Sequence record: NC_014467.1
DNA: 64,000 bases
Direction: 5' to 3' (one strand)
Source of the DNA: Escherichia phage RB16
Position numbers and translations under genes: made by a program. Under the pieces are notes generated by a model. That model did no database searches, was not told the DNA's origin, and was given only the letters and a program-made list of their open reading frames with translations. This document shows, piece after piece, positions 1,798 to 11,295 of the stretch. How positions within the stretch are numbered: the stretch's first letter is position 1; every line of letters begins with the position of its first letter.

Positions 1798-2311
1798 ATC
1801 ACATGGAGGTGGAAACCGAACAATTGATGATGAAATTTCTTCAATAAATGAACTACTTCCTATGTTGGATGTTGATGTTGTATTAGGAAAGATATACTGG
1901 AAAAACTCACCTCGTAAGAGCGTCCCTGCTGGAACTGAAGCAGGGAGTAAGACAAAACATGGTTACGTTGCTATCGGGTATAAAAAGACGTATTATAGAC
2001 GACATCGAATAATATTTTACGTCGCTAATGGTTATCTTCCTCTCGTAGTAGATCACAAACACGGTGTTGAATCTGGTGATGGAATAGATAACCTGCAAGA
2101 CATCACGCAACAACAAAACTCCGTTAAAATGAGAATGAGTAGAAGGAATTCTTCTGGGTTTAGAGGGGTTTCCTTTCACCAAAAATCAGGAAAATGGCAA
2201 TCATGTATTGTGTATAATAGAAAAACAATATATCTTGGTTTGTATGAAACACCAGAACTTGCACATAGTGCATATACAGACAAGCGAAAAGAATTATTTG
2301 GTGAAATATGA
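1781..2311 (+). CDS. HNH-AP2 homing endonuclease (paralog 1 of 6)
   Basis: HNH_3-type motif (VDHKHGV...DNLQ...QQQN) followed by AP2-like DNA-binding domain (SGFRGVSF...GKWQ...LGLY). Confidence 0.8.
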   Translation: MKLKTKSHGGGNRTIDDEISSINELLPMLDVDVVLGKIYWKNSPRKSVPAGTEAGSKTKHGYVAIGYKKTYYRRHRIIFYVANGYLPLVVDHKHGVESGDGIDNLQDITQQQNSVKMRMSRRNSSGFRGVSFHQKSGKWQSCIVYNRKTIYLGLYETPELAHSAYTDKRKELFGEI

Positions 2312-4005
2312 AATTAAATTTCCGTAAAATTAAGTATCAAAACATCTTATCAGTGGGTAATACCCCGATCGAACTTGAATTCGATACTGCAAAGAAAACC
2401 CTGATCACGGGTAAAAATGGTGGTGGTAAATCCACACTGATCGAAGCGTTGACGTATGCTCTTTTTGGTAAATCATTTCGTGATTTAAAAGTCGGGCAAC
2501 TGGTAAACAGTGTCAACAAAAAGAAATGTCTGGTTGAACTGGATATTGAATACGGGAAAGATTCGTACAAAGTCGTTCGCGGACAAAAGCCGAAAGTATT
2601 CGAGATCTGGAAAAACGGTGATAAGTTAGCAGAAGATTCAGCAGCGGGTGATTATCAATCTCAGCTTGAATCCATGCTCAATATTAACCTGGTTGGATTC
2701 AAACAGGTAATCGTGTTGGGTACTGCTGGCTATACTCCATTCATGGAACTGAAAACACCGGATCGCCGTAAACTGGTTGAAGACCTGTTGTCGCTATCGG
2801 TTATCAGTGAAATGGATAAGCTGAACAAATCATATGTCCGTGGTGTTAATCAGCAGTTGGATACCCTGTCAATGCAGGTTAACCACATCCAGCAGCAGAT
2901 CGCTACACACCAGCGCTTCATTGATGAACAGCGAGCTAAAGCGAACCAGAACAACGCACGATACAAAGAGATCTACGATAGCCACGTTGAAACCGCTAAG
3001 AACATCAAAGCACAGCTTATGCAGTTGCAAGCGGAGATCGCAGAAACGGTGATCACTGGTGCAGACCGAACGGAAGATATAAACAAACTCCGTGATGGCT
3101 ATACGCGCCTCTCTATGACTGTAGAACAGTTTAAAAAGCTGGAAGTGATGTATCAGAAAGGTGGTGAGTGTCCGGCCTGTAAACAGGCGATTAAGCCCAC
3201 TCCTGAACGCATGGAAGAGATCGCAAACAACATCAAAGCGGGTACGCAACGATTAACGCTGATCAAAACCAAACAGGACGAGTTGCAAGGCATTATGAAC
3301 GAGTTGCTTCAACAGCAACGCGCACTGAATGCTATGAAAACGAAATACGAAGCCCTGAAAGGTACGCTGCAAAATGAAGTTGCCAACGCTAAACGCGCAC
3401 AAGCGATCATGGAACAGGCAAGCGCGGAAGTTGTTATTGATGAAGAACCTGTTAAGCAGTTACAACAACAGGAAGCAGATCTGAACGATAAACGTCAAGG
3501 ATATGTGAAAGAAAAATATATCCGTGGTATCGTTACAGATATGTTAAAAGATTCTGGTGTAAAAGCCAGCATCGTAAAACGTTATATCCCGTACTTCAAC
3601 AAGCAGATCGCATACTATCTGGATCTGTTGGGCGCTGACTACCAGTTCACTTTAGATGATGAATTCAACGAATCAATCAAATCACTGGGGCGCGATGATT
3701 TTAGTTACGCATCATTTAGCCAGGGTGAACGCGCACGAATCAACCTTGCGTTGCTTATGACCTGGCGTGATGTAACAAGTAAAGTTTCTGGTGTTGATTT
3801 ATCGCTTCTGGTACTAGATGAAATCTTTGATGGTGCAATGGATAAAGAAGGTGGATTTGCAGTCAGAGCATTACTGGATGATATTGAAGGTAATGTTATT
3901 GTAATCAGTCATCAGGATTTAGATCCACAAGAATTTCATCGACATATTGTTATGTCTAAAGTAGGGAGATTCACCAAATGCAAGATAGTAAACAATGATT
4001 ACTAA
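2308..4005 (+). CDS. 46: recombination endonuclease subunit gp46 (Rad50/SbcC-like ATPase)
   Basis: 565 aa; Walker A GKNGGGKST; long coiled-coil middle; aligns by eye to T4 gp46 N-terminus. Confidence 0.9.
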   Translation: MKLNFRKIKYQNILSVGNTPIELEFDTAKKTLITGKNGGGKSTLIEALTYALFGKSFRDLKVGQLVNSVNKKKCLVELDIEYGKDSYKVVRGQKPKVFEIWKNGDKLAEDSAAGDYQSQLESMLNINLVGFKQVIVLGTAGYTPFMELKTPDRRKLVEDLLSLSVISEMDKLNKSYVRGVNQQLDTLSMQVNHIQQQIATHQRFIDEQRAKANQNNARYKEIYDSHVETAKNIKAQLMQLQAEIAETVITGADRTEDINKLRDGYTRLSMTVEQFKKLEVMYQKGGECPACKQAIKPTPERMEEIANNIKAGTQRLTLIKTKQDELQGIMNELLQQQRALNAMKTKYEALKGTLQNEVANAKRAQAIMEQASAEVVIDEEPVKQLQQQEADLNDKRQGYVKEKYIRGIVTDMLKDSGVKASIVKRYIPYFNKQIAYYLDLLGADYQFTLDDEFNESIKSLGRDDFSYASFSQGERARINLALLMTWRDVTSKVSGVDLSLLVLDEIFDGAMDKEGGFAVRALLDDIEGNVIVISHQDLDPQEFHRHIVMSKVGRFTKCKIVNNDY

Positions 4006-4570
4006 AAACTGGGACGACGAATTTCAAGCCGAGATTCGTCGTCGGTTTTACCATGTAAACGGGGTTTTGTATCACAAGACGGAGAGTAAACAAACTGCTT
4101 TTTCTCCGGCGGGATACTATTTCAAACCTGGTGATATGGTGAAATGTCACAAAACTAGGAAAAAGACTCCATATTTACAGATTTGTATGCGATATGAAGG
4201 GAAGTCTAACTATCTATACGTACATAGGGTTGTGTGGTTTCTTGAATATGGGTATCAGGTTGATACGATCGACCATATCGATCTAAATCCTTTAAATAAT
4301 GATCCATCGAATCTTAGAGAAGCAAGCACACAGCAGAACCATTACAACAAAAATGGAAAACCTAACACTTCCTCCACTTACAAGGGTGTATCATGGGATA
4401 AATCAACTTGCAAATGGAAAGTGGGTATTCAGCATAATAAGAAAAAGATTCATTTAGGATATTTTGATGATGAAGTCGAAGCGGCTAAGGCATACGATGC
4501 AAAGGCAATTGAAATTGGTGGACAATATGCGAGGTTAAACTTCCATGATTATGTTAGAACGAGAATTTGA
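3995..4570 (+). CDS. HNH-AP2 homing endonuclease (paralog 2)
   Basis: HNH motif (IDHIDLNPLNNDPSNL) plus AP2-like domain (YKGVSWDKSTCKWKV...LGYF). Confidence 0.8.
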   Translation: MITKNWDDEFQAEIRRRFYHVNGVLYHKTESKQTAFSPAGYYFKPGDMVKCHKTRKKTPYLQICMRYEGKSNYLYVHRVVWFLEYGYQVDTIDHIDLNPLNNDPSNLREASTQQNHYNKNGKPNTSSTYKGVSWDKSTCKWKVGIQHNKKKIHLGYFDDEVEAAKAYDAKAIEIGGQYARLNFHDYVRTRI

Positions 4571-4742
4571 ATTGATGACCTCTCCAGAAGCGGAGAGGTT
4601 TTATCTTCATAACGAACTGTTGGAAGAAAAACACGTTGTCTCTATGGAAGATGTCAAAGAAGCCTTTAAAGACAATCAGTTAGAGCTAACGCGAATACTG
4701 AATAATAAATCGTCTATGTGGTTTCTCGAAAAAATCTATTGA
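4545..4742 (+). CDS. hypothetical protein (65 aa)
   Basis: ORF track only. Confidence 0.35.
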   Translation: MIMLEREFELMTSPEAERFYLHNELLEEKHVVSMEDVKEAFKDNQLELTRILNNKSSMWFLEKIY

Positions 4743-4768
4743 CATCAGAACATAAATACCTTAAAGTT

Positions 4769-4800
4769 GCCCGTGTACTGAGATGCACGGGCTTTTATTT
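4769..4800 (+). terminator. rho-independent terminator-like hairpin (GCCCGTG...CACGGGC + TTTTATTTT)
   Basis: Read directly; sits inside the N-terminal extension of the ORF-track call 4718..6511, arguing for the internal start at 4814. Confidence 0.6.
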
Positions 4801-4813
4801 TGAGGAACGGAAA

Positions 4814-6511
4814 ATGATTAACGAAAAAATGACACACCGCGAAGCGTTGGAAATCTTAGGGGCCACGGGTACTGAATCCAAAGCTGAAATGTCCAAACTC
4901 TTCAAACGTGCTTCTCTGCGTAATCACCCCGATCGTGGTGGTAGCACAGAACTCATGCAAAAAATTAACCAGGCATATGACGTAGTAACGAGAACAAACA
5001 GTTCTGGTGAAACTATGATGGATATGCGAGCGCGTCACGCAGCGAATAAAAAAGCGTGGGAAGAAAAACTGGATGCGTATTTTGTTGTTGCTAAGAACTA
5101 TTTCAGCACGAAATTTAACGCACAGGAATTCGCTGAATACTTCACCAAATACACCGGACAGCCGACGACCTTCACACAGGTAGTCAAGAAAGATACAATT
5201 TCCGTATCTGCTGTGTTCCGTTTCACTTCTGGTGATGCTCACTTTGATTTCGCTTTCTACTGCAAGCCAGAAGAAGGTAAAGGTTTGATGTCTCCTGATG
5301 CAAGCGCATTGGGTAGTGTTTCTGTCAATACTCTGGTACTGGTTGGAACCAAAAAACATAAAATGGCAAGCCGTGAATATCAATGGGGCAAAAACCCAGA
5401 TAAGATCACACCGGAAAGCCTGTTCCCGTCCAAGAAACTTGCATCAATTTTCAGCCCGACACAAAAGAACCTCAAGTTCAAACGTGCTGACTATATGACT
5501 TCTTTCCGCAAGCACTTAGACGCAGAAATCAGCGGCAATGATATCTATGTTCCTGTAGGCGACCTGAAAGTTCGTTTCTATCGTCATGTAATGATGCGTA
5601 AAGGTGCGTATGTGTTTAGTGCGGTATACGACCCAGCGGTAAGTAAATTCCGTTCTGCTGCAAACCTTCGCGGTACTATGTTTGAAGACGAAGACGGCGC
5701 ATGTTTGGATATGATTATCGACACTTTCAAAGAAATGCAGAAAGCAAAACCGAACGTTAACGGTATTGTCAGTATCATTGACAAGATGAACGCAGAATTC
5801 GCAGCGGGACACCGTTCAGCATCTTTCGTCAAACGTATGGCACAGCAAGCAGCAGCACCGAAGCCGGAAGAAAAGCCGAAACGCACTGTTAACCGTATCA
5901 GCAAAGATGATTATTTCAACGCATTGAAACAAGCGGGTGCAACATTCCGTAGCAACTACGGTGAGTTTGATAACGGCGCTGGATTGACGTTCCACTTCAA
6001 ACGCGAGATCAGCAACCGTAAAGGCTTCTGGAGTTTCAGCAGTTTTAATTTCATGCACTCCGGTCAAAGTCATGTTGAATGGTTGAAAGATATCGACATT
6101 GACGAAGACAGCAAAGGTGCAAGTATCGGTCTGATGGTTGATACTCTGAAACAGTTGCGTGGTGTTGCTGATTGGTATACTGCAAGAAAGATCCTGGAAG
6201 CGATGCGCGATAACTTCAAAGCTGGTAAGTTCTCCGCACCACACGTTAAGAAAGAAGCCGAACAGAAACGCACTGAGGCGCAAGCTAAGGACGAGTTAGG
6301 CGCACAGCCTACCAAACCCCAGGGAGCGAAGAAAGAAGCCCCAGCAGTTGATAAGGCTCACGAGGCACAGATGGATCGTGAGAAGTCACAGATGAATGCA
6401 ACCATTCGTTCTATGCTCTCTGCCCTGGTTAAAGCCGGACGCAAAGACACGCCGGAAGAAATTAAAAAAGCAGTCGATGAAGCAATCGCTCTTTGGCGCT
6501 TGAAACACTAA
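4814..6511 (+). CDS. J-domain (DnaJ-like, HPD motif) protein, ~565 aa, C-terminal region unassigned
   Basis: N-terminal ~65 aa match J-domain consensus (ALEILG...LRNHPDRGG...INQAYDVV); start chosen at MINEKM with GAGGA RBS. Confidence 0.75.
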   Translation: MINEKMTHREALEILGATGTESKAEMSKLFKRASLRNHPDRGGSTELMQKINQAYDVVTRTNSSGETMMDMRARHAANKKAWEEKLDAYFVVAKNYFSTKFNAQEFAEYFTKYTGQPTTFTQVVKKDTISVSAVFRFTSGDAHFDFAFYCKPEEGKGLMSPDASALGSVSVNTLVLVGTKKHKMASREYQWGKNPDKITPESLFPSKKLASIFSPTQKNLKFKRADYMTSFRKHLDAEISGNDIYVPVGDLKVRFYRHVMMRKGAYVFSAVYDPAVSKFRSAANLRGTMFEDEDGACLDMIIDTFKEMQKAKPNVNGIVSIIDKMNAEFAAGHRSASFVKRMAQQAAAPKPEEKPKRTVNRISKDDYFNALKQAGATFRSNYGEFDNGAGLTFHFKREISNRKGFWSFSSFNFMHSGQSHVEWLKDIDIDEDSKGASIGLMVDTLKQLRGVADWYTARKILEAMRDNFKAGKFSAPHVKKEAEQKRTEAQAKDELGAQPTKPQGAKKEAPAVDKAHEAQMDREKSQMNATIRSMLSALVKAGRKDTPEEIKKAVDEAIALWRLKH

Positions 6512-6527
6512 CTGGTTATGCTATAAT

Positions 6528-6557
6528 GGGAACTGTTGAAAAGCAGTTCCCTTTTTT
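6528..6557 (+). terminator. rho-independent terminator-like hairpin (GGGAACTG...CAGTTCCC + T6)
   Basis: Read directly downstream of J-domain gene. Confidence 0.6.
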
Positions 6558-6568
6558 ATGAGGTGAGT

Positions 6569-6796
6569 ATGATTATTCAGGTATCGGTTCAGGGCAATAC
6601 CCTGACAGTAACAAATTCCATTATGACCGCTATGGCTGCATGTCGTGATCATGTCATGTCAAACCCTCCGGTAACGGAAATTCTGGAAATTGATGTATGG
6701 GAAGATGGTGTGATCGAAGAATCCTTTGGTTTCACTCCGTTAGAGGAAGATTTACGCAAAATGGAACAATGGCTATGGCAAACTGTACCCCAATGA
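6569..6796 (+). CDS. hypothetical protein (~75 aa)
   Basis: ORF with GAGGTGAG RBS; start trimmed from ORF track 6536. Confidence 0.45.
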   Translation: MIIQVSVQGNTLTVTNSIMTAMAACRDHVMSNPPVTEILEIDVWEDGVIEESFGFTPLEEDLRKMEQWLWQTVPQ

Positions 6797-7050
6797 AACT
6801 ACCAAAACACACAACCCTGTTAACCCGCGAAAAACTTCATTCTGTTGAATGGAGTCCGTTAGATGTGATGGTGTTCGATCTGGAATCCAAAATCATTAAC
6901 GCTCATGTTAACGGATTGAGTATCTTTTCTGTTGAATTTGAAAAGATTCGCGGGTACAATGAAGCCTGTAAAGACAAATTGCGCGTCATGGTTGAAGCTA
7001 TGGGCTACATCGTGACTATTGAAGACAACAAAATGTGGATCGCGCTATGA
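6793..7050 (+). CDS. hypothetical protein (~85 aa)
   Basis: ATGA start/stop overlap with upstream ORF and with frd (translational coupling). Confidence 0.45.
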   Translation: MKLPKHTTLLTREKLHSVEWSPLDVMVFDLESKIINAHVNGLSIFSVEFEKIRGYNEACKDKLRVMVEAMGYIVTIEDNKMWIAL

Positions 7051-7628
7051 GCAAAGTAAAAGCAGTTTTCGCCGTTGGTCATGATATGTACGAAGTGGAC
7101 TATGCTTTCGGTTATGAACAGGGTTTGCCGTGGGGCCACTGCAAAGAGGATTTGCAGAACTTCAAAGCAGAAACCGCAAATAGCGTCCTGATCATGGGTG
7201 CGAACACTTTTACTTCTCTGCCTGGTAAATTGCCAGGGCGAGTGCATTGCGTTCTGTCTGCGTCCGGTCAACGTCTGGTAACGAAGAACGGGAATACCGC
7301 TGATTACATCATCCACGGCGGCGGGTTGTCTGCTGCAATCGACGTGATGAAAGCAACGCATCCAGATAGTGATGTGTGTATCATTGGCGGTAAGGGGTTG
7401 CTTCTGGAAGCAATCAATAATAAACTGGTTGATGAAGTGGTTGTGACCCACATTTACGGACATCATGCATATAATGCACCCGCGTTTAAACGTGATGTTT
7501 CGTTCACTGTTCCTGAATTCTGCGAAGCGGTTCTGAAATATGAACTGACCGATTTCAAAATTCAACAGATCGAATCAAACGAACGCGTCAGAAAAATTAT
7601 CGTCGATCGACATACGAAAAAGGCATAA
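7047..7628 (+). CDS. frd: dihydrofolate reductase
   Basis: 193 aa (T4 Frd length); LPWG motif; position immediately upstream of td as in T4. Confidence 0.85.
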   Translation: MSKVKAVFAVGHDMYEVDYAFGYEQGLPWGHCKEDLQNFKAETANSVLIMGANTFTSLPGKLPGRVHCVLSASGQRLVTKNGNTADYIIHGGGLSAAIDVMKATHPDSDVCIIGGKGLLLEAINNKLVDEVVVTHIYGHHAYNAPAFKRDVSFTVPEFCEAVLKYELTDFKIQQIESNERVRKIIVDRHTKKA

Positions 7629-7629
7629 A

Positions 7630-8484
7630 ATGAAACAATATCTTGATATCGTCAACACCGTTCTAACACACGGTACTGAATCAACCGATCGTACTGGTGT
7701 TGGTACATTGCGCATCTTCGGGATGCAAGCACGTTGGAACCTCGCAGAAGGTTTCCCAGCGACTACCAGCAAACAGCTATTCTTCAAACCGTGTAAGCAT
7801 GAATTACAATGGTTCCTCGAAGGTTCTACCAACGTGGAAACACTGCGTAAAATGACGTGGGGTGAAGATAGCGATAAGCGGACGATCTGGGACGATAACT
7901 ACGAAAATCAGGCTAAAGCGCTGGGTTATACGCATGGTTATCTGGGACCGATCTACGGGCATCAATGGCGCTCATTTGGTGCGGAAGGTTCATTCAGTGG
8001 TGTTGACCAGATTGCTCGAATCGTCAAAGAACTGAAAGAAAAACCAGACGATCGCGGGATCATCGTTTCCGCCTGGAACCCTGTTGATCTTGATGATATG
8101 GCTTTGCGTCCGTGTCACTGTTTCTTCCAGTTCGTCGTAATCAACGGTAAACTGTCTCTACAGTGGTATCAGCGTTCAGTTGATGTCTTCTTAGGGTTGC
8201 CGTTCAATATCGCCTCCTACGCTCTCCTGACGCATATTATCGCTGATATTTGCGGGTATGAAGTGGGTGATCTGGTTTGGACTGGTGGCGATGTCCATAT
8301 CTACAAAAACGCAGTAGAACAAGCGAAAGAGTTGTTGAAGCCGGAACGCGCACCGCTTCCACTTCCGACCCTTTATATGCCGAAGGTAAATAGCTTACTT
8401 GATTTGGATCAAGAATTCTTTGACTCCATCCATTTGAAAGACTATAATCACCACGGCTCGCTAAAAGCAGCTATGGCAGTATAA
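7630..8484 (+). CDS. td: thymidylate synthase (uninterrupted, no intron)
   Basis: 284 aa; conserved TS motifs (DRTGVGT, WNPVD, PCH, SVDVFLGLPFNIASYALL); continuous ORF. Confidence 0.9.
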   Translation: MKQYLDIVNTVLTHGTESTDRTGVGTLRIFGMQARWNLAEGFPATTSKQLFFKPCKHELQWFLEGSTNVETLRKMTWGEDSDKRTIWDDNYENQAKALGYTHGYLGPIYGHQWRSFGAEGSFSGVDQIARIVKELKEKPDDRGIIVSAWNPVDLDDMALRPCHCFFQFVVINGKLSLQWYQRSVDVFLGLPFNIASYALLTHIIADICGYEVGDLVWTGGDVHIYKNAVEQAKELLKPERAPLPLPTLYMPKVNSLLDLDQEFFDSIHLKDYNHHGSLKAAMAV

Positions 8485-8524: not shown

Positions 8525-10777
8525 ATGAGTGATATTAAAACAGTAGTAAAATCTTCTGGCGTAAGTCAGACATTTGAAAAAGAAAAACTGTTCAAAGTCC
8601 TTAATTGGGCGAGTGCTGGAAAGAATATTGATGTTAACGCATTCCTTGAAAATGTTGTTGACCTGCTTCGTGATGGTATGACTACCAAACAGATCCAGGC
8701 TGTAGCAATCAAGTATGCAGCGGATCGAATCTCCGTTAAAGAACCTGACTGGCAGTATGTAGCGGCTAACCTCGAAATGTTCGCCCTTCGTAAAACCGTT
8801 TACGGGCAGTTTGACCCGATCCCGTTCTACGAACACATCACTAAGCTGGTTGAGGCAGGAAAATACGATAAAGAAATCCTGACCAAATGGACTAAATCCG
8901 ATATCGAATATTTCGAAGAGAATATTAATCACGATAAAGATTTTGAATTCTCTTATGCTGGCGTTCAACAGTTGATCGGGAAATATCTGTTGCAGGATCG
9001 CACCAACGGCGATATCTACGAAACACCACAGTATGCATTCATGCTGATTGCGATGTGTTTACACCAGGATGAACCGCGCACCCTGTCGGCGTTTAATCAT
9101 GTGGTTGACTTCTATAACGCAATTTCGGATCGTAAACTGTCATTACCTACGCCTATTATGGCGGGTGTGCGTACTCCTACGCGTCAGTTCTCCAGTTGTG
9201 TTGTAATCGAATCTGGTGATTCTCTGGGTTCTCTGAACGCTGTTACGTCCGCGATCGTGAAATATATCTCTCAACGTGCGGGTATCGGTGTCAACGCCGG
9301 ACACATTCGCGCTATGGGTTCAAAAATCCGTGGTGGTGAAGCAGTCCATACAGGCGTTATCCCGTTCTGGAAACACATTCAGACGGCGGTTAAATCTTGT
9401 TCCCAGGGTGGCGTTCGTGGTGGTGCAGCAACCCTGTATTATCCGATCTGGCATCTTGAAGTTGAAAACCTGCTGGTTCTGAAAAATAACCGTGGCGTTG
9501 AAGAAAACCGTATTCGTCACCTGGACTATGGCGTACAGCTTAACGATTTGATGTATAAGCGTTTAATCAATAACGATTACATCACTCTGTTCAGCCCTGA
9601 CGTTGCGAATGATCGCCTCTATGACGCGTTCTATCAAGCGGATCAGACTGAGTTTGAAGAACTCTATACCAGTCTGGAAAAAGACCCAGCGGTACGCAAG
9701 AAACGTATTAAAGCGGTAGATCTGTTCCAGTTGCTTGTTCAGGAACGCGCACAGACCGGACGCAAATACATTTTCAACAGTCACCATGTAAACCAGCAGG
9801 GTAGTTTCTCTGTTCCGATTCGTATGTCGAACCTGTGCTGTGAAATCGCGATCCCAACTTCACCGCTGGATGATGATGATAAACTGGCTGGCGAAATTGG
9901 ACTGTGTACGCTTATGGCGATCGTTCTCGATAATGCCGATATAAGCGAATTCCCAGCCCTTACACGCATCGCAGTACGCGCACTGGATAACTTGCTGGAT
10001 TACCAGAACTACCCTGTTGCGGCGGCTCTGAAAGCCAAACAGCGTCGTTCTCTGGGTGTGGGTATCACCAACTATGCATCATGGCTGGCAAGCAACTATT
10101 GCGACTACTCCGAAGCATACGCCGGAAACGTTCATGAGTTGATGGAAGCGTTTCAATTTAACCTGCTGGTTGCCTCTATGGAACTCGCACAGGAACGCGG
10201 TGCATGTGGACTGTTCCACGAAACGAAATATGCACAAGGGCTGTTGCCTATTGACTGGTACTGCAAAAACGTTGATGAACTGGCATCACCTGTGTATAAC
10301 TGCGACTGGGAATGGTTACGCGGTGAAATCAAAAAACATGGCTTGCGTAACTCAACACTTTCTGCTTTAATGCCTTGTGAAAGTAGCTCACAGGTGAGTA
10401 ACTCAACCAACGGGATCGAACCTCCACGCGGCCCTGTGAGTGTGAAATCTTCTAAGGAAGGTTCATTCAATCAGGTAGTACCGAACCAGAATAATCAGAT
10501 TGACTTCTATGATTATCTCTGGACAATGGCAAAACGCGGAAATAAAGGTTATCTGGCTCACGTAGCGGTTATGCAGAAGTTTGTTGATCAGGCTATCTCT
10601 GCAAACACCAACTATGATCCGGCTAACTTCCCAGATGGTAAAGTGAAATCTGAAATCATCCTTGAAGATCTGCTGTATGCAAACTATTTCGGCATCAAAA
10701 CGCTGTACTACCACAACACCCGCGACGGTGCAGGTGAGGAAGAAGCGGAAGATTCATGTGAGGGATGCAAAATTTAA
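8525..10777 (+). CDS. nrdA: aerobic ribonucleotide reductase large subunit
   Basis: 750 aa; N-terminal ATP-cone-like region, class Ia catalytic motifs (SNLCCEI, PCESSSQ); T4 synteny td-nrdA-nrdB. Confidence 0.9.
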   Translation: MSDIKTVVKSSGVSQTFEKEKLFKVLNWASAGKNIDVNAFLENVVDLLRDGMTTKQIQAVAIKYAADRISVKEPDWQYVAANLEMFALRKTVYGQFDPIPFYEHITKLVEAGKYDKEILTKWTKSDIEYFEENINHDKDFEFSYAGVQQLIGKYLLQDRTNGDIYETPQYAFMLIAMCLHQDEPRTLSAFNHVVDFYNAISDRKLSLPTPIMAGVRTPTRQFSSCVVIESGDSLGSLNAVTSAIVKYISQRAGIGVNAGHIRAMGSKIRGGEAVHTGVIPFWKHIQTAVKSCSQGGVRGGAATLYYPIWHLEVENLLVLKNNRGVEENRIRHLDYGVQLNDLMYKRLINNDYITLFSPDVANDRLYDAFYQADQTEFEELYTSLEKDPAVRKKRIKAVDLFQLLVQERAQTGRKYIFNSHHVNQQGSFSVPIRMSNLCCEIAIPTSPLDDDDKLAGEIGLCTLMAIVLDNADISEFPALTRIAVRALDNLLDYQNYPVAAALKAKQRRSLGVGITNYASWLASNYCDYSEAYAGNVHELMEAFQFNLLVASMELAQERGACGLFHETKYAQGLLPIDWYCKNVDELASPVYNCDWEWLRGEIKKHGLRNSTLSALMPCESSSQVSNSTNGIEPPRGPVSVKSSKEGSFNQVVPNQNNQIDFYDYLWTMAKRGNKGYLAHVAVMQKFVDQAISANTNYDPANFPDGKVKSEIILEDLLYANYFGIKTLYYHNTRDGAGEEEAEDSCEGCKI

Positions 10778-10781
10778 CGGA

Positions 10782-10803
10782 GAAGCCCCGAAAGGGGCTT
10801 TTT
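10782..10803 (+). terminator. hairpin AGCCCC-GAAA-GGGGCT + T-run
   Basis: Read directly after nrdA stop. Confidence 0.5.
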
Positions 10804-10806
10804 GAT

Positions 10807-11295
10807 ATGATAACACAATCGCGATTGAAAGAATTATTGACGTATGACAAAGAAACTGGTATTTTTCACTGGAAAGTAAAACTGAATAACAACCATGACA
10901 TAACAAAACCTGCTGGCGTTGTGTATGATGGATATGTTAGGATACAGGTAGACGGTAAAAAATATCGAGCGCACCGATTAGCGTGGTTGTATGTATATGG
11001 CTATATGCCAGAACTTATCGACCACAAAAACGGAATAACTACCGATAATTGGATAGATAATTTGCGGATTGCTTCATGCACTCAAAATCAATACAACAGC
11101 AAGATTCGAAAAGATAACACGTCTGGAATCAAAGGCGTTTCTTTTCATAAAAGAACTGGAAAATGGCAAGCAAAATGCCGTGTTGATGGAATAGTTCATT
11201 ATTTGGGATTATTCCACACAACAACCGAAGCCGAATCCGCTGTAATTGCGTTTCGACATAAACACCATCAAGAATATAGTAACGACGGGAAATAA
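10807..11295 (+). CDS. HNH-AP2 homing endonuclease (paralog 3) at the nrdA/nrdB junction (position of mobE in T4)
   Basis: HNH motif (IDHKNGITTDNWIDNL) + AP2-like domain (IKGVSFHKRTGKWQA); start taken after the hairpin. Confidence 0.75.
   Translation: MITQSRLKELLTYDKETGIFHWKVKLNNNHDITKPAGVVYDGYVRIQVDGKKYRAHRLAWLYVYGYMPELIDHKNGITTDNWIDNLRIASCTQNQYNSKIRKDNTSGIKGVSFHKRTGKWQAKCRVDGIVHYLGLFHTTTEAESAVIAFRHKHHQEYSNDGK

Follow-up and report, generated by a model that had tools for sequence, protein, structure and literature searches.

The gene between gp46 and frd of Escherichia phage RB16 is rki16, the gene for the long version of the phage class C J-domain protein Rki

Among the closest described relatives of the gene considered here is ORF057w of phage RB43, whose product, Rki, has a J-domain that can stand in for that of DnaJ in vivo (PMC3486835). 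Rki pulls down DnaK, its toxicity depends on DnaK and on the HPD motif, and the H38Q substitution abolishes its effects. It is not a generic co-chaperone; the shortened Rki(1-159), which is not toxic, does have weak activity of this generic kind, and residues past 159 are needed for toxicity. Toxicity is worse in the absence of DnaJ, and Rki and DnaJ compete genetically. Rki binds sigma32 only with DnaK present and stabilises it, and the growth defect of delta-rki phage is rescued by extra sigma32 in K-12 strains. Northern blots show early transcription of RB43 rki from a TTGACA/TAAAGT promoter. Co-expression of the downstream ORF058w with Rki has no effect, and RB42 too makes a short Rki (all PMC3486835).

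The same study reports that in RB16 the TAA at position 238 is replaced by GAA, giving a 565-aa fusion (D9ICB9), and that the KP15 gene is fused too. The fusion, Rki16, was seen in RB16-infected cells by western blot as an anti-Rki band of ~64 kDa, and when expressed from a plasmid it stabilises sigma32 in a DnaK-dependent manner (PMC3486835, Figure S7). The short form is the more toxic and the more active on sigma32: Rki16 stabilises sigma32 more weakly than Rki, complements RB43 delta-rki 'considerably less efficiently' and is less toxic (PMC3486835). The domain architecture of Rki16, the internal duplication described below and the breadth of the family are not part of that work (Perrody et al. 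2012). A 2026 review cites only Perrody et al. 2012 for 'Rki of RB16, RB42 and RB43', and our literature search found no later structural or mechanistic study of Rki.

The window analysed here is a stretch of 64,000 nucleotides of the RB16 genome (NC_014467.1). It contains an open reading frame at 4718..6511 (+), within which an internal ATG at 4814 begins a 565-codon gene ending at the stop codon 6509-6511; the rki16 coding sequence is thus 4814..6511 (+, stop included), and its product has a predicted mass of 63.7 kDa and a pI of 9.5. Reading the sequence places a Shine-Dalgarno GAGG at 4802-4805 (+), 8 nt 5' of this ATG, and the N-terminus MINE or MITE of all homologues in a 20-sequence alignment likewise favours ATG 4814. 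The GTG at 4718 was rejected as the start since the 5' extension would hold the promoter and hairpin described below, and the Shine-Dalgarno and ATG 4814 fit.

Letter for letter, the product is RB16p058 (YP_003858358.1; UniRef100_D9ICB9; UniProt D9ICB9), and it matches PHROG 7739 end to end, over positions 1-565 of 565. All 565 residues, Glu238, the locus and the promoter are the same as for Rki16 (D9ICB9; Perrody et al. 2012, PLoS Genet 8:e1003037). The gene at 4814-6511 is, beyond reasonable doubt, rki16, which encodes the phage class C (type III) J-domain protein Rki in its full-length form. A tblastn search of phage genomes returned 203 records, with Lw1 and Xman 98.8% identical; the combined 057w+058w reading frame of RB43 shows 98.6% identity to the RB16 protein. 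The J-domain of RB43 Rki is identical to that of RB16, and the early promoter, the locus and the DnaK/sigma32 biology are shared between the two phages.

A preliminary description made from the sequence alone had placed a J-domain ORF with an LRNHPDRGG motif between gp46 and frd, and the ORF list and the sequence agree with it exactly. Its suspicion of a protein akin to Rki and far longer than the 237-aa form was also correct, as the product has 565 aa and residues 1-122 are the same as in RB43 Rki. It erred in treating the protein as new and its last ~500 residues as unassigned: these correspond to the C-terminal domain of Rki plus ORF058w, and the protein is exactly D9ICB9, which was named Rki16, western-blotted and functionally tested in PMC3486835. 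Full-length homology to an already characterised protein, which that description had named as evidence against its own reading, is what we find, because the full-length match is the published Rki16. The protein, its length and the cause of its length are all in Perrody et al. 2012 (PMC3486835), and rki16 as a finding adds nothing to them; the value of the present analysis could lie in re-reading that work. The additions are modest and consist of a domain map, the B/C duplication, evidence that the RB43 form is truncated, and the breadth of the J-A-B family.

Upstream of rki16 lie gp46 (2308-4005) and gp45.2 (4545-4742), and frd (7035-7628) lies downstream. Between gp46 and gp45.2 is a homing-endonuclease-like ORF (3995-4570, +), one of three paralogous ORFs of 176-191 aa (1781-2311, 3995-4570 and 10765-11295, all +) that resemble free-standing homing endonuclease genes and sit at the gp47/gp46, gp46/gp45.2 and nrdA/nrdB junctions respectively. 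HNH-type (HxHxxxxDN) and AP2-like (GVSxxxxxxKWxA) motifs were recognised in them by eye. The ORF at 3995-4570 is missing from Lw1, RB43 and Miller, for which megablast of 4000-8000 aligns only from ~4544. Small ORFs occupy 6536-7050 (+) between rki16 and frd; their number and arrangement are unlike those of RB43 (ORF059w-061w), and the stretch is in two pieces in megablast alignments with close relatives.

A predicted early sigma70-type promoter lies at 4739..4767 (+), with TTGACA at 4739-4744, a 17-nt spacer and TAAAGT at 4762-4767 (10/12 matches in the scan); its boxes are those of the published RB43 rki early promoter (PMC3486835). The scan also found a terminator-like GC-rich hairpin at 4769..4802 (+), of 9 pairs including 6 GC, followed by the T-run TTTTATTTT. 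This hairpin starts 2 nt past the -10 box, and the expected transcription start therefore falls within its 5' arm. A second terminator-like hairpin, 3' of the stop codon at 6528..6561 (+), has 10 pairs and is followed by the T-run TTTTTTAT; it is abutted by a promoter-like site at 6500-6527 (+; 11/12 in the scan). The same arrangement, a sigma70-like promoter with a GC-rich hairpin and T-run 0-2 nt past the -10 box, is thus seen twice (4739-4802 and 6500-6561, +). Early transcription units may be insulated by such pairs, which would then be a recurring terminator/promoter module. The hairpins would stop transcripts arriving from upstream, such as read-through from gp46/45.2 at 4769, and transcripts from the adjacent promoter, starting within the 5' arm, would escape.

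The J-domain comprises aa 1-67 (4814..5014, +), as delimited by Pfam DnaJ, by a PDB profile search and by AlphaFold2 (AF2), which predicts helices at residues 8-15, 23-36 and 45-60. The LRNHPDRGG motif occupies residues 35-43, with H38-P39-D40 (4925-4933) in the loop that joins helices II and III. As a single sequence the protein matches Pfam DnaJ (PF00226) with E 1.9e-5 and 25.1 bits, under the gathering score of 27.8; all 40 sampled homologues match PF00226, the best with E 5.5e-11. Searched against the PDB, the family profile finds the J-domain of E. coli DnaJ (5nro_B, E 1.3e-8) and 35 further J-domain chains at E < 0.01. The 5nro_B alignment pairs FKR...HPDR and AYDV with their counterparts, so that F30-K31-R32 corresponds to DnaJ Y25-K26-R27 and A54-Y55-D56-V57 to DnaJ AYEV; the helix II/III residues whose loss would have spoken against a J-domain are thus kept. 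HPD is invariant both in the 20-sequence alignment and in 40 distant homologues. The profile match and this invariance indicate that the predicted J-domain is more than a chance motif. The expectation in the preliminary description that it would recruit DnaK is supported by RB43, where the same J-domain has been proven functional and engages DnaK (PMC3486835).

With E. coli DnaJ, CbpA and DjlA (PF00226) Rki16 shares the HPD motif, a basic helix II (FKR) and helix III (AYDV), but it lacks the G/F region, zinc finger and C-terminal domains of DnaJ. There is no CxxCxGxG motif in the rki16 ORF, the G+F fraction after the J-domain is 0.06, and the whole protein holds two Cys. Because it has only these two Cys and lacks the G/F region and zinc finger, the product is, judged from its sequence, a class C J-domain protein. 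The SV40 large and small T antigens are viral class C proteins in which a virus J-domain is likewise fused to virus-specific domains and redirects host Hsp70, and weak PDB sequence matches to T antigen were obtained (1faf_A, E 3.8e-4; 1gh6_A, E 0.021). The T antigens differ from Rki16 in that their non-J regions are unrelated and they act in another host on another target.

The remainder of the protein was divided using AF2 models; that of the full protein, built on the 20-sequence alignment, has a mean pLDDT of 78.9, and that of a J-less construct (aa 100-475) one of 86.1. A long connecting helix (aa 68-100; 5015..5113, +; pLDDT 75-86) is predicted to lead into domain A, an alpha+beta domain of aa 101-222 (5114..5479, +) that ends in the family-invariant motif ...GTKKHKM...NPDKITPESLFPSKKL. 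Family alignments show K181, K183, P200, F204 and P205 of domain A to be invariant, and its second half, which holds GTKKHKM...PESLFPSKKL, is the part missing from the non-toxic Rki(1-159) construct. Domain B (aa 223-335; 5480..5818, +) starts at the KRADY motif and is modelled as a helix, six strands and two helices; its residues D226, R257 and E291 are invariant across the wide family, and it is present in the homologues of ~345 aa that consist of J-domain, A and B (J-A-B). A basic linker of pI 11.1 follows (aa 336-362; 5819..5899, +), which is predicted to be disordered (pLDDT < 50 for aa 336-359).

Domain C (aa 363-474; 5900..6235, +) is an internal duplicate of domain B, because hhalign of aa 215-360 against aa 355-495 gives a probability of 99.4% (E 3.4e-21, 26% identity over 128 columns); the order of secondary-structure elements in the AF2 model is also the same in both. 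Domain A is not counted as a third repeat, as hhalign finds no sequence relationship to B/C (probability < 1%), though its helix/strand order is similar. The protein ends with a charged linker, predicted to be disordered (aa 475-513; pLDDT < 50 for aa 475-512), and a C-terminal helical hairpin (aa 514-565, with AF2 helices at 514-542 and 547-564), together encoded by 6236..6508 (+) and conserved in 17 full-length homologue clusters. Structure prediction, proposed earlier as a way into the C-terminal region, has thus resolved domains A, B, C and the tail and has given no convincing fold match for A, B or C. Foldseek of the predicted structure against the PDB gave no match at E 1e-3 or better, the BFVD structure search returned family members only, and the PDB profile search found J-domains only; Pfam, NCBIfam and PHROGs searched with the whole protein matched only the J-domain and PHROGs of unknown function. 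Weak fold resemblances were seen to protein-binding alpha+beta modules, namely capping protein, TIP41, PsiB and a type III secretion chaperone.

Comparison of RB16 and RB43 (AY967407) codon by codon shows that codon 238 (5525-5527, +) is GAA (Glu) in RB16 and TAA in RB43, where the same stretch is annotated as ORF057w (Rki, 237 aa, Q56BZ1) and ORF058w (305 aa). Apart from this codon there are seven residue differences, V123E within 1-237 and six within 239-565, residues 1-122 being identical. The RB43 stop lies just past the first helix of domain B (KRADYMTSFRKHLDA*) and so within that domain; as a result of the TAA, RB43 Rki retains very little of domain B and has neither domain C nor the tail. 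Met261, the annotated start of 058w, also falls inside domain B, and inspection of the 20 nt 5' of it revealed no GAGG/AGGA-type Shine-Dalgarno. A single CDS runs across codon 238 in 49 phage records, and two are annotated only in RB43 records. Among 21 homologue clusters, 17 are of 561-573 aa and three are of 349 aa (J-A-B only), and in the cluster at >= 90% identity the 237 + 305 aa pair occurs in RB43 records only. Lw1, IME-CF2 and GuL6 have the 565-aa form, as do seven Pseudotevenvirus entries, which share one 565-aa sequence. Between RB16 and RB43, dN/dS amounts to 0.03 over the first 237 residues and 0.12 over aa 239-565, values that rest on only 34 nucleotide differences.

Because its stop falls within domain B, the RB43 Rki that has been studied looks like a shortened, derived form. 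Most parsimoniously, the 237-aa protein arose by nonsense truncation of a J-A-B-C-tail protein and is not half of a two-gene module. We infer that the protein ancestrally included domains B and C and the helical tail as integral parts, which either modulate the J-A module or give it a further binding specificity.

Two further records bear observations of their own. In HE981739.1 (Pseudotevenvirus RB43) a 251-bp probe matched only from codon ~238 on, possibly because the record represents the Geneva laboratory's delta-rki::gfp construct. In Aeromonas phage 65 (NC_015251.1, ~2453-3467; locus L003) the Rki homologue ST65p124 has 244 aa, with a frameshift directly after KKADY: residues 1-234 of CC2_351 align in frame 3 and residues 205-334 in frame 1, placing the remainder of domain B in another frame. 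Phages CC2 and 65.2, related to phage 65, have an intact J-A-B protein of 337 aa. The break coincides with the A/B boundary at which the RB43 stop also lies, and reflects either a truncation that arose independently or an error in the sequence; if independent, it would hint at recurrent loss of domain B, perhaps in laboratory passage.

When a J-less profile was used in an exhaustive HMM search, 281 representative proteins scored E <= 1e-3, 144 of them <= 1e-10. Nearly all of the 281 are 330-370 aa long, most of them ~345 aa, and match profile positions 1-232 only (A + B) with their own residues ~100-340. No domain besides Pfam DnaJ was matched by more than one of 40 sampled members; 40 distant members all retain HPD, G43, P200, F204, P205, D226 and E291. 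Most cultured carriers are Pseudotevenvirus, Slopekvirus-type Klebsiella phages or Aeromonas T4-like phages, with a few others such as Desulfovibrio and Variovorax phages, and a search of IMG/VR with a 10-sequence alignment yielded further relatives on contigs of up to 166 kb. A J-A-B core of ~345 aa thus defines, at the level of sequence, a wide family in large phages. The duplication of B and the tail are thus a specialisation of the enterobacterial T4-like group.

The setting of the gene is less widely shared than the core. A metagenomic T4-like contig (L002; SRR25375751) encodes at 4341-5390 a 349-aa J-A-B variant without domain C or tail, in the order gp47, gp46, gp45.2, J protein, three small ORFs, frd, td, nrdA, the position being the same as that of rki16. 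The gp46-frd locus is common to close relatives only, including the metagenomic L002 and L007. Among the distant J-A-B genes tested for gp46-frd synteny only L007, a close relative, is syntenic, so there is no conserved neighbourhood among the distant genes. A search for related loci with a single protein query (P0041) found nothing.

The proposed course of events begins with early transcription of rki16 from its own sigma70-type promoter, after which the N-terminal J-domain would dock on host DnaK through HPD and helices II/III. The J-domain and domain A would then act on the DnaK-sigma32 complex such that sigma32 is no longer passed to FtsH; sigma32 would build up, the heat-shock regulon would be induced and phage growth would improve. 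These four steps are supported in general for RB43 Rki, for which early expression as well as early transcription is on record; for Rki16 the evidence comprises sigma32 stabilisation and complementation on plasmid over-expression and, in RB16 infection, the presence of the protein. That the J-domain acting on DnaK, with domain A blocking delivery of sigma32 to FtsH, is also the main role of the long form seems to us reasonably probable, and we hold this role and the identity of rki16, taken jointly, with considerable confidence. Over-expressed Rki16 is weaker than Rki on sigma32 and in complementation, and less toxic, so the principal task of the full-length protein may be something other than stabilising sigma32. 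A tentative alternative is a different primary client, in which the B (and C) modules would bring a specific host or phage protein or nucleic acid to DnaK, and the sigma32 effect would be a by-product of occupied DnaK that is exaggerated in the RB43 truncation. The conservation of domains B, C and the tail over long distances points in this direction, as do the poorer showing of full-length Rki16 in sigma32 assays and the weak resemblances to protein-binding folds, and the non-J part of class C J-domain proteins is established as normally setting client or location (PMC3486835, introduction); nonetheless, Rki16 still stabilises sigma32 and complements delta-rki. We would entertain, equally tentatively, the broader proposal that RB43 Rki is a lineage-specific truncation of a native J-A-B(-C-tail) adaptor, belonging to a family of at least 281 clusters, in which B/C selects the client and of which the sigma32 story is a partial or deregulated view.

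Action of Rki16 through DnaK and domain A on sigma32 has also to be weighed against simple capture of DnaK. The end of domain A (aa ~196-215, PESLFPSKKLASIF), invariant and basic-hydrophobic, could be a pseudo-substrate that the protein's own J-domain locks into the substrate-binding domain of DnaK, titrating DnaK away from sigma32 and from DnaJ-dependent processes. With its hydrophobic core between Lys the segment resembles DnaK-binding peptides under established motif rules, and P200, F204 and P205 are invariant in the 40 distant homologues; the published toxicity, which requires DnaK, an intact HPD and residues past 159, is missing from Rki(1-159) and is worse without DnaJ, would also fit. 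The AF2 model, however, shows short helices packed on domain A and not a free extended peptide, and the DnaK-dependent association with sigma32 (PMC3486835) suggests a ternary complex over simple titration, so that we consider such a trap improbable. Genetic competition between Rki and DnaJ (PMC3486835) might also be taken to mean that competition for DnaK blunts DnaJ-dependent immune sensing, for example by bNACHT25, given that PMC12619734 (ref 74) cites DnaJ-dependent sensing of phage by an NLR-related protein. A role in counter-defence is nevertheless very unlikely, as the delta-rki phenotype is rescued merely by more sigma32 in K-12 strains. It is just as hard to credit that split rki and 058w, as in RB43 and RB42, are the functional design and the RB16 fusion a tolerated mutation: RB42 does make a short protein as well, and short Rki is the more active, but all non-RB43 records and the metagenomic clusters have one ORF, the stop and the 058w start cut through a domain left unbroken in hundreds of homologues, and Met261 has no GAGG/AGGA-type Shine-Dalgarno in the 20 nt before it.

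Should the long form be the natural state, work on the short RB43 Rki may have exaggerated toxicity and sigma32 stabilisation and overlooked what the B/C module does. An entry point is also offered by the J-A-B core to a large, unannotated family of putative phage Hsp70 adaptors. Elsewhere in the window, a small ORF of up to 73 aa at 62278-62499 (-) contains two CxxCxGxG motifs (CVACNGSG...CSSCNGTG) resembling the DnaJ zinc-finger domain, a similarity also reported for RB43 ORF179c and ORF191c (Perrody et al., PMC3486835); the phage thus appears to encode DnaJ-like pieces as separate small proteins.
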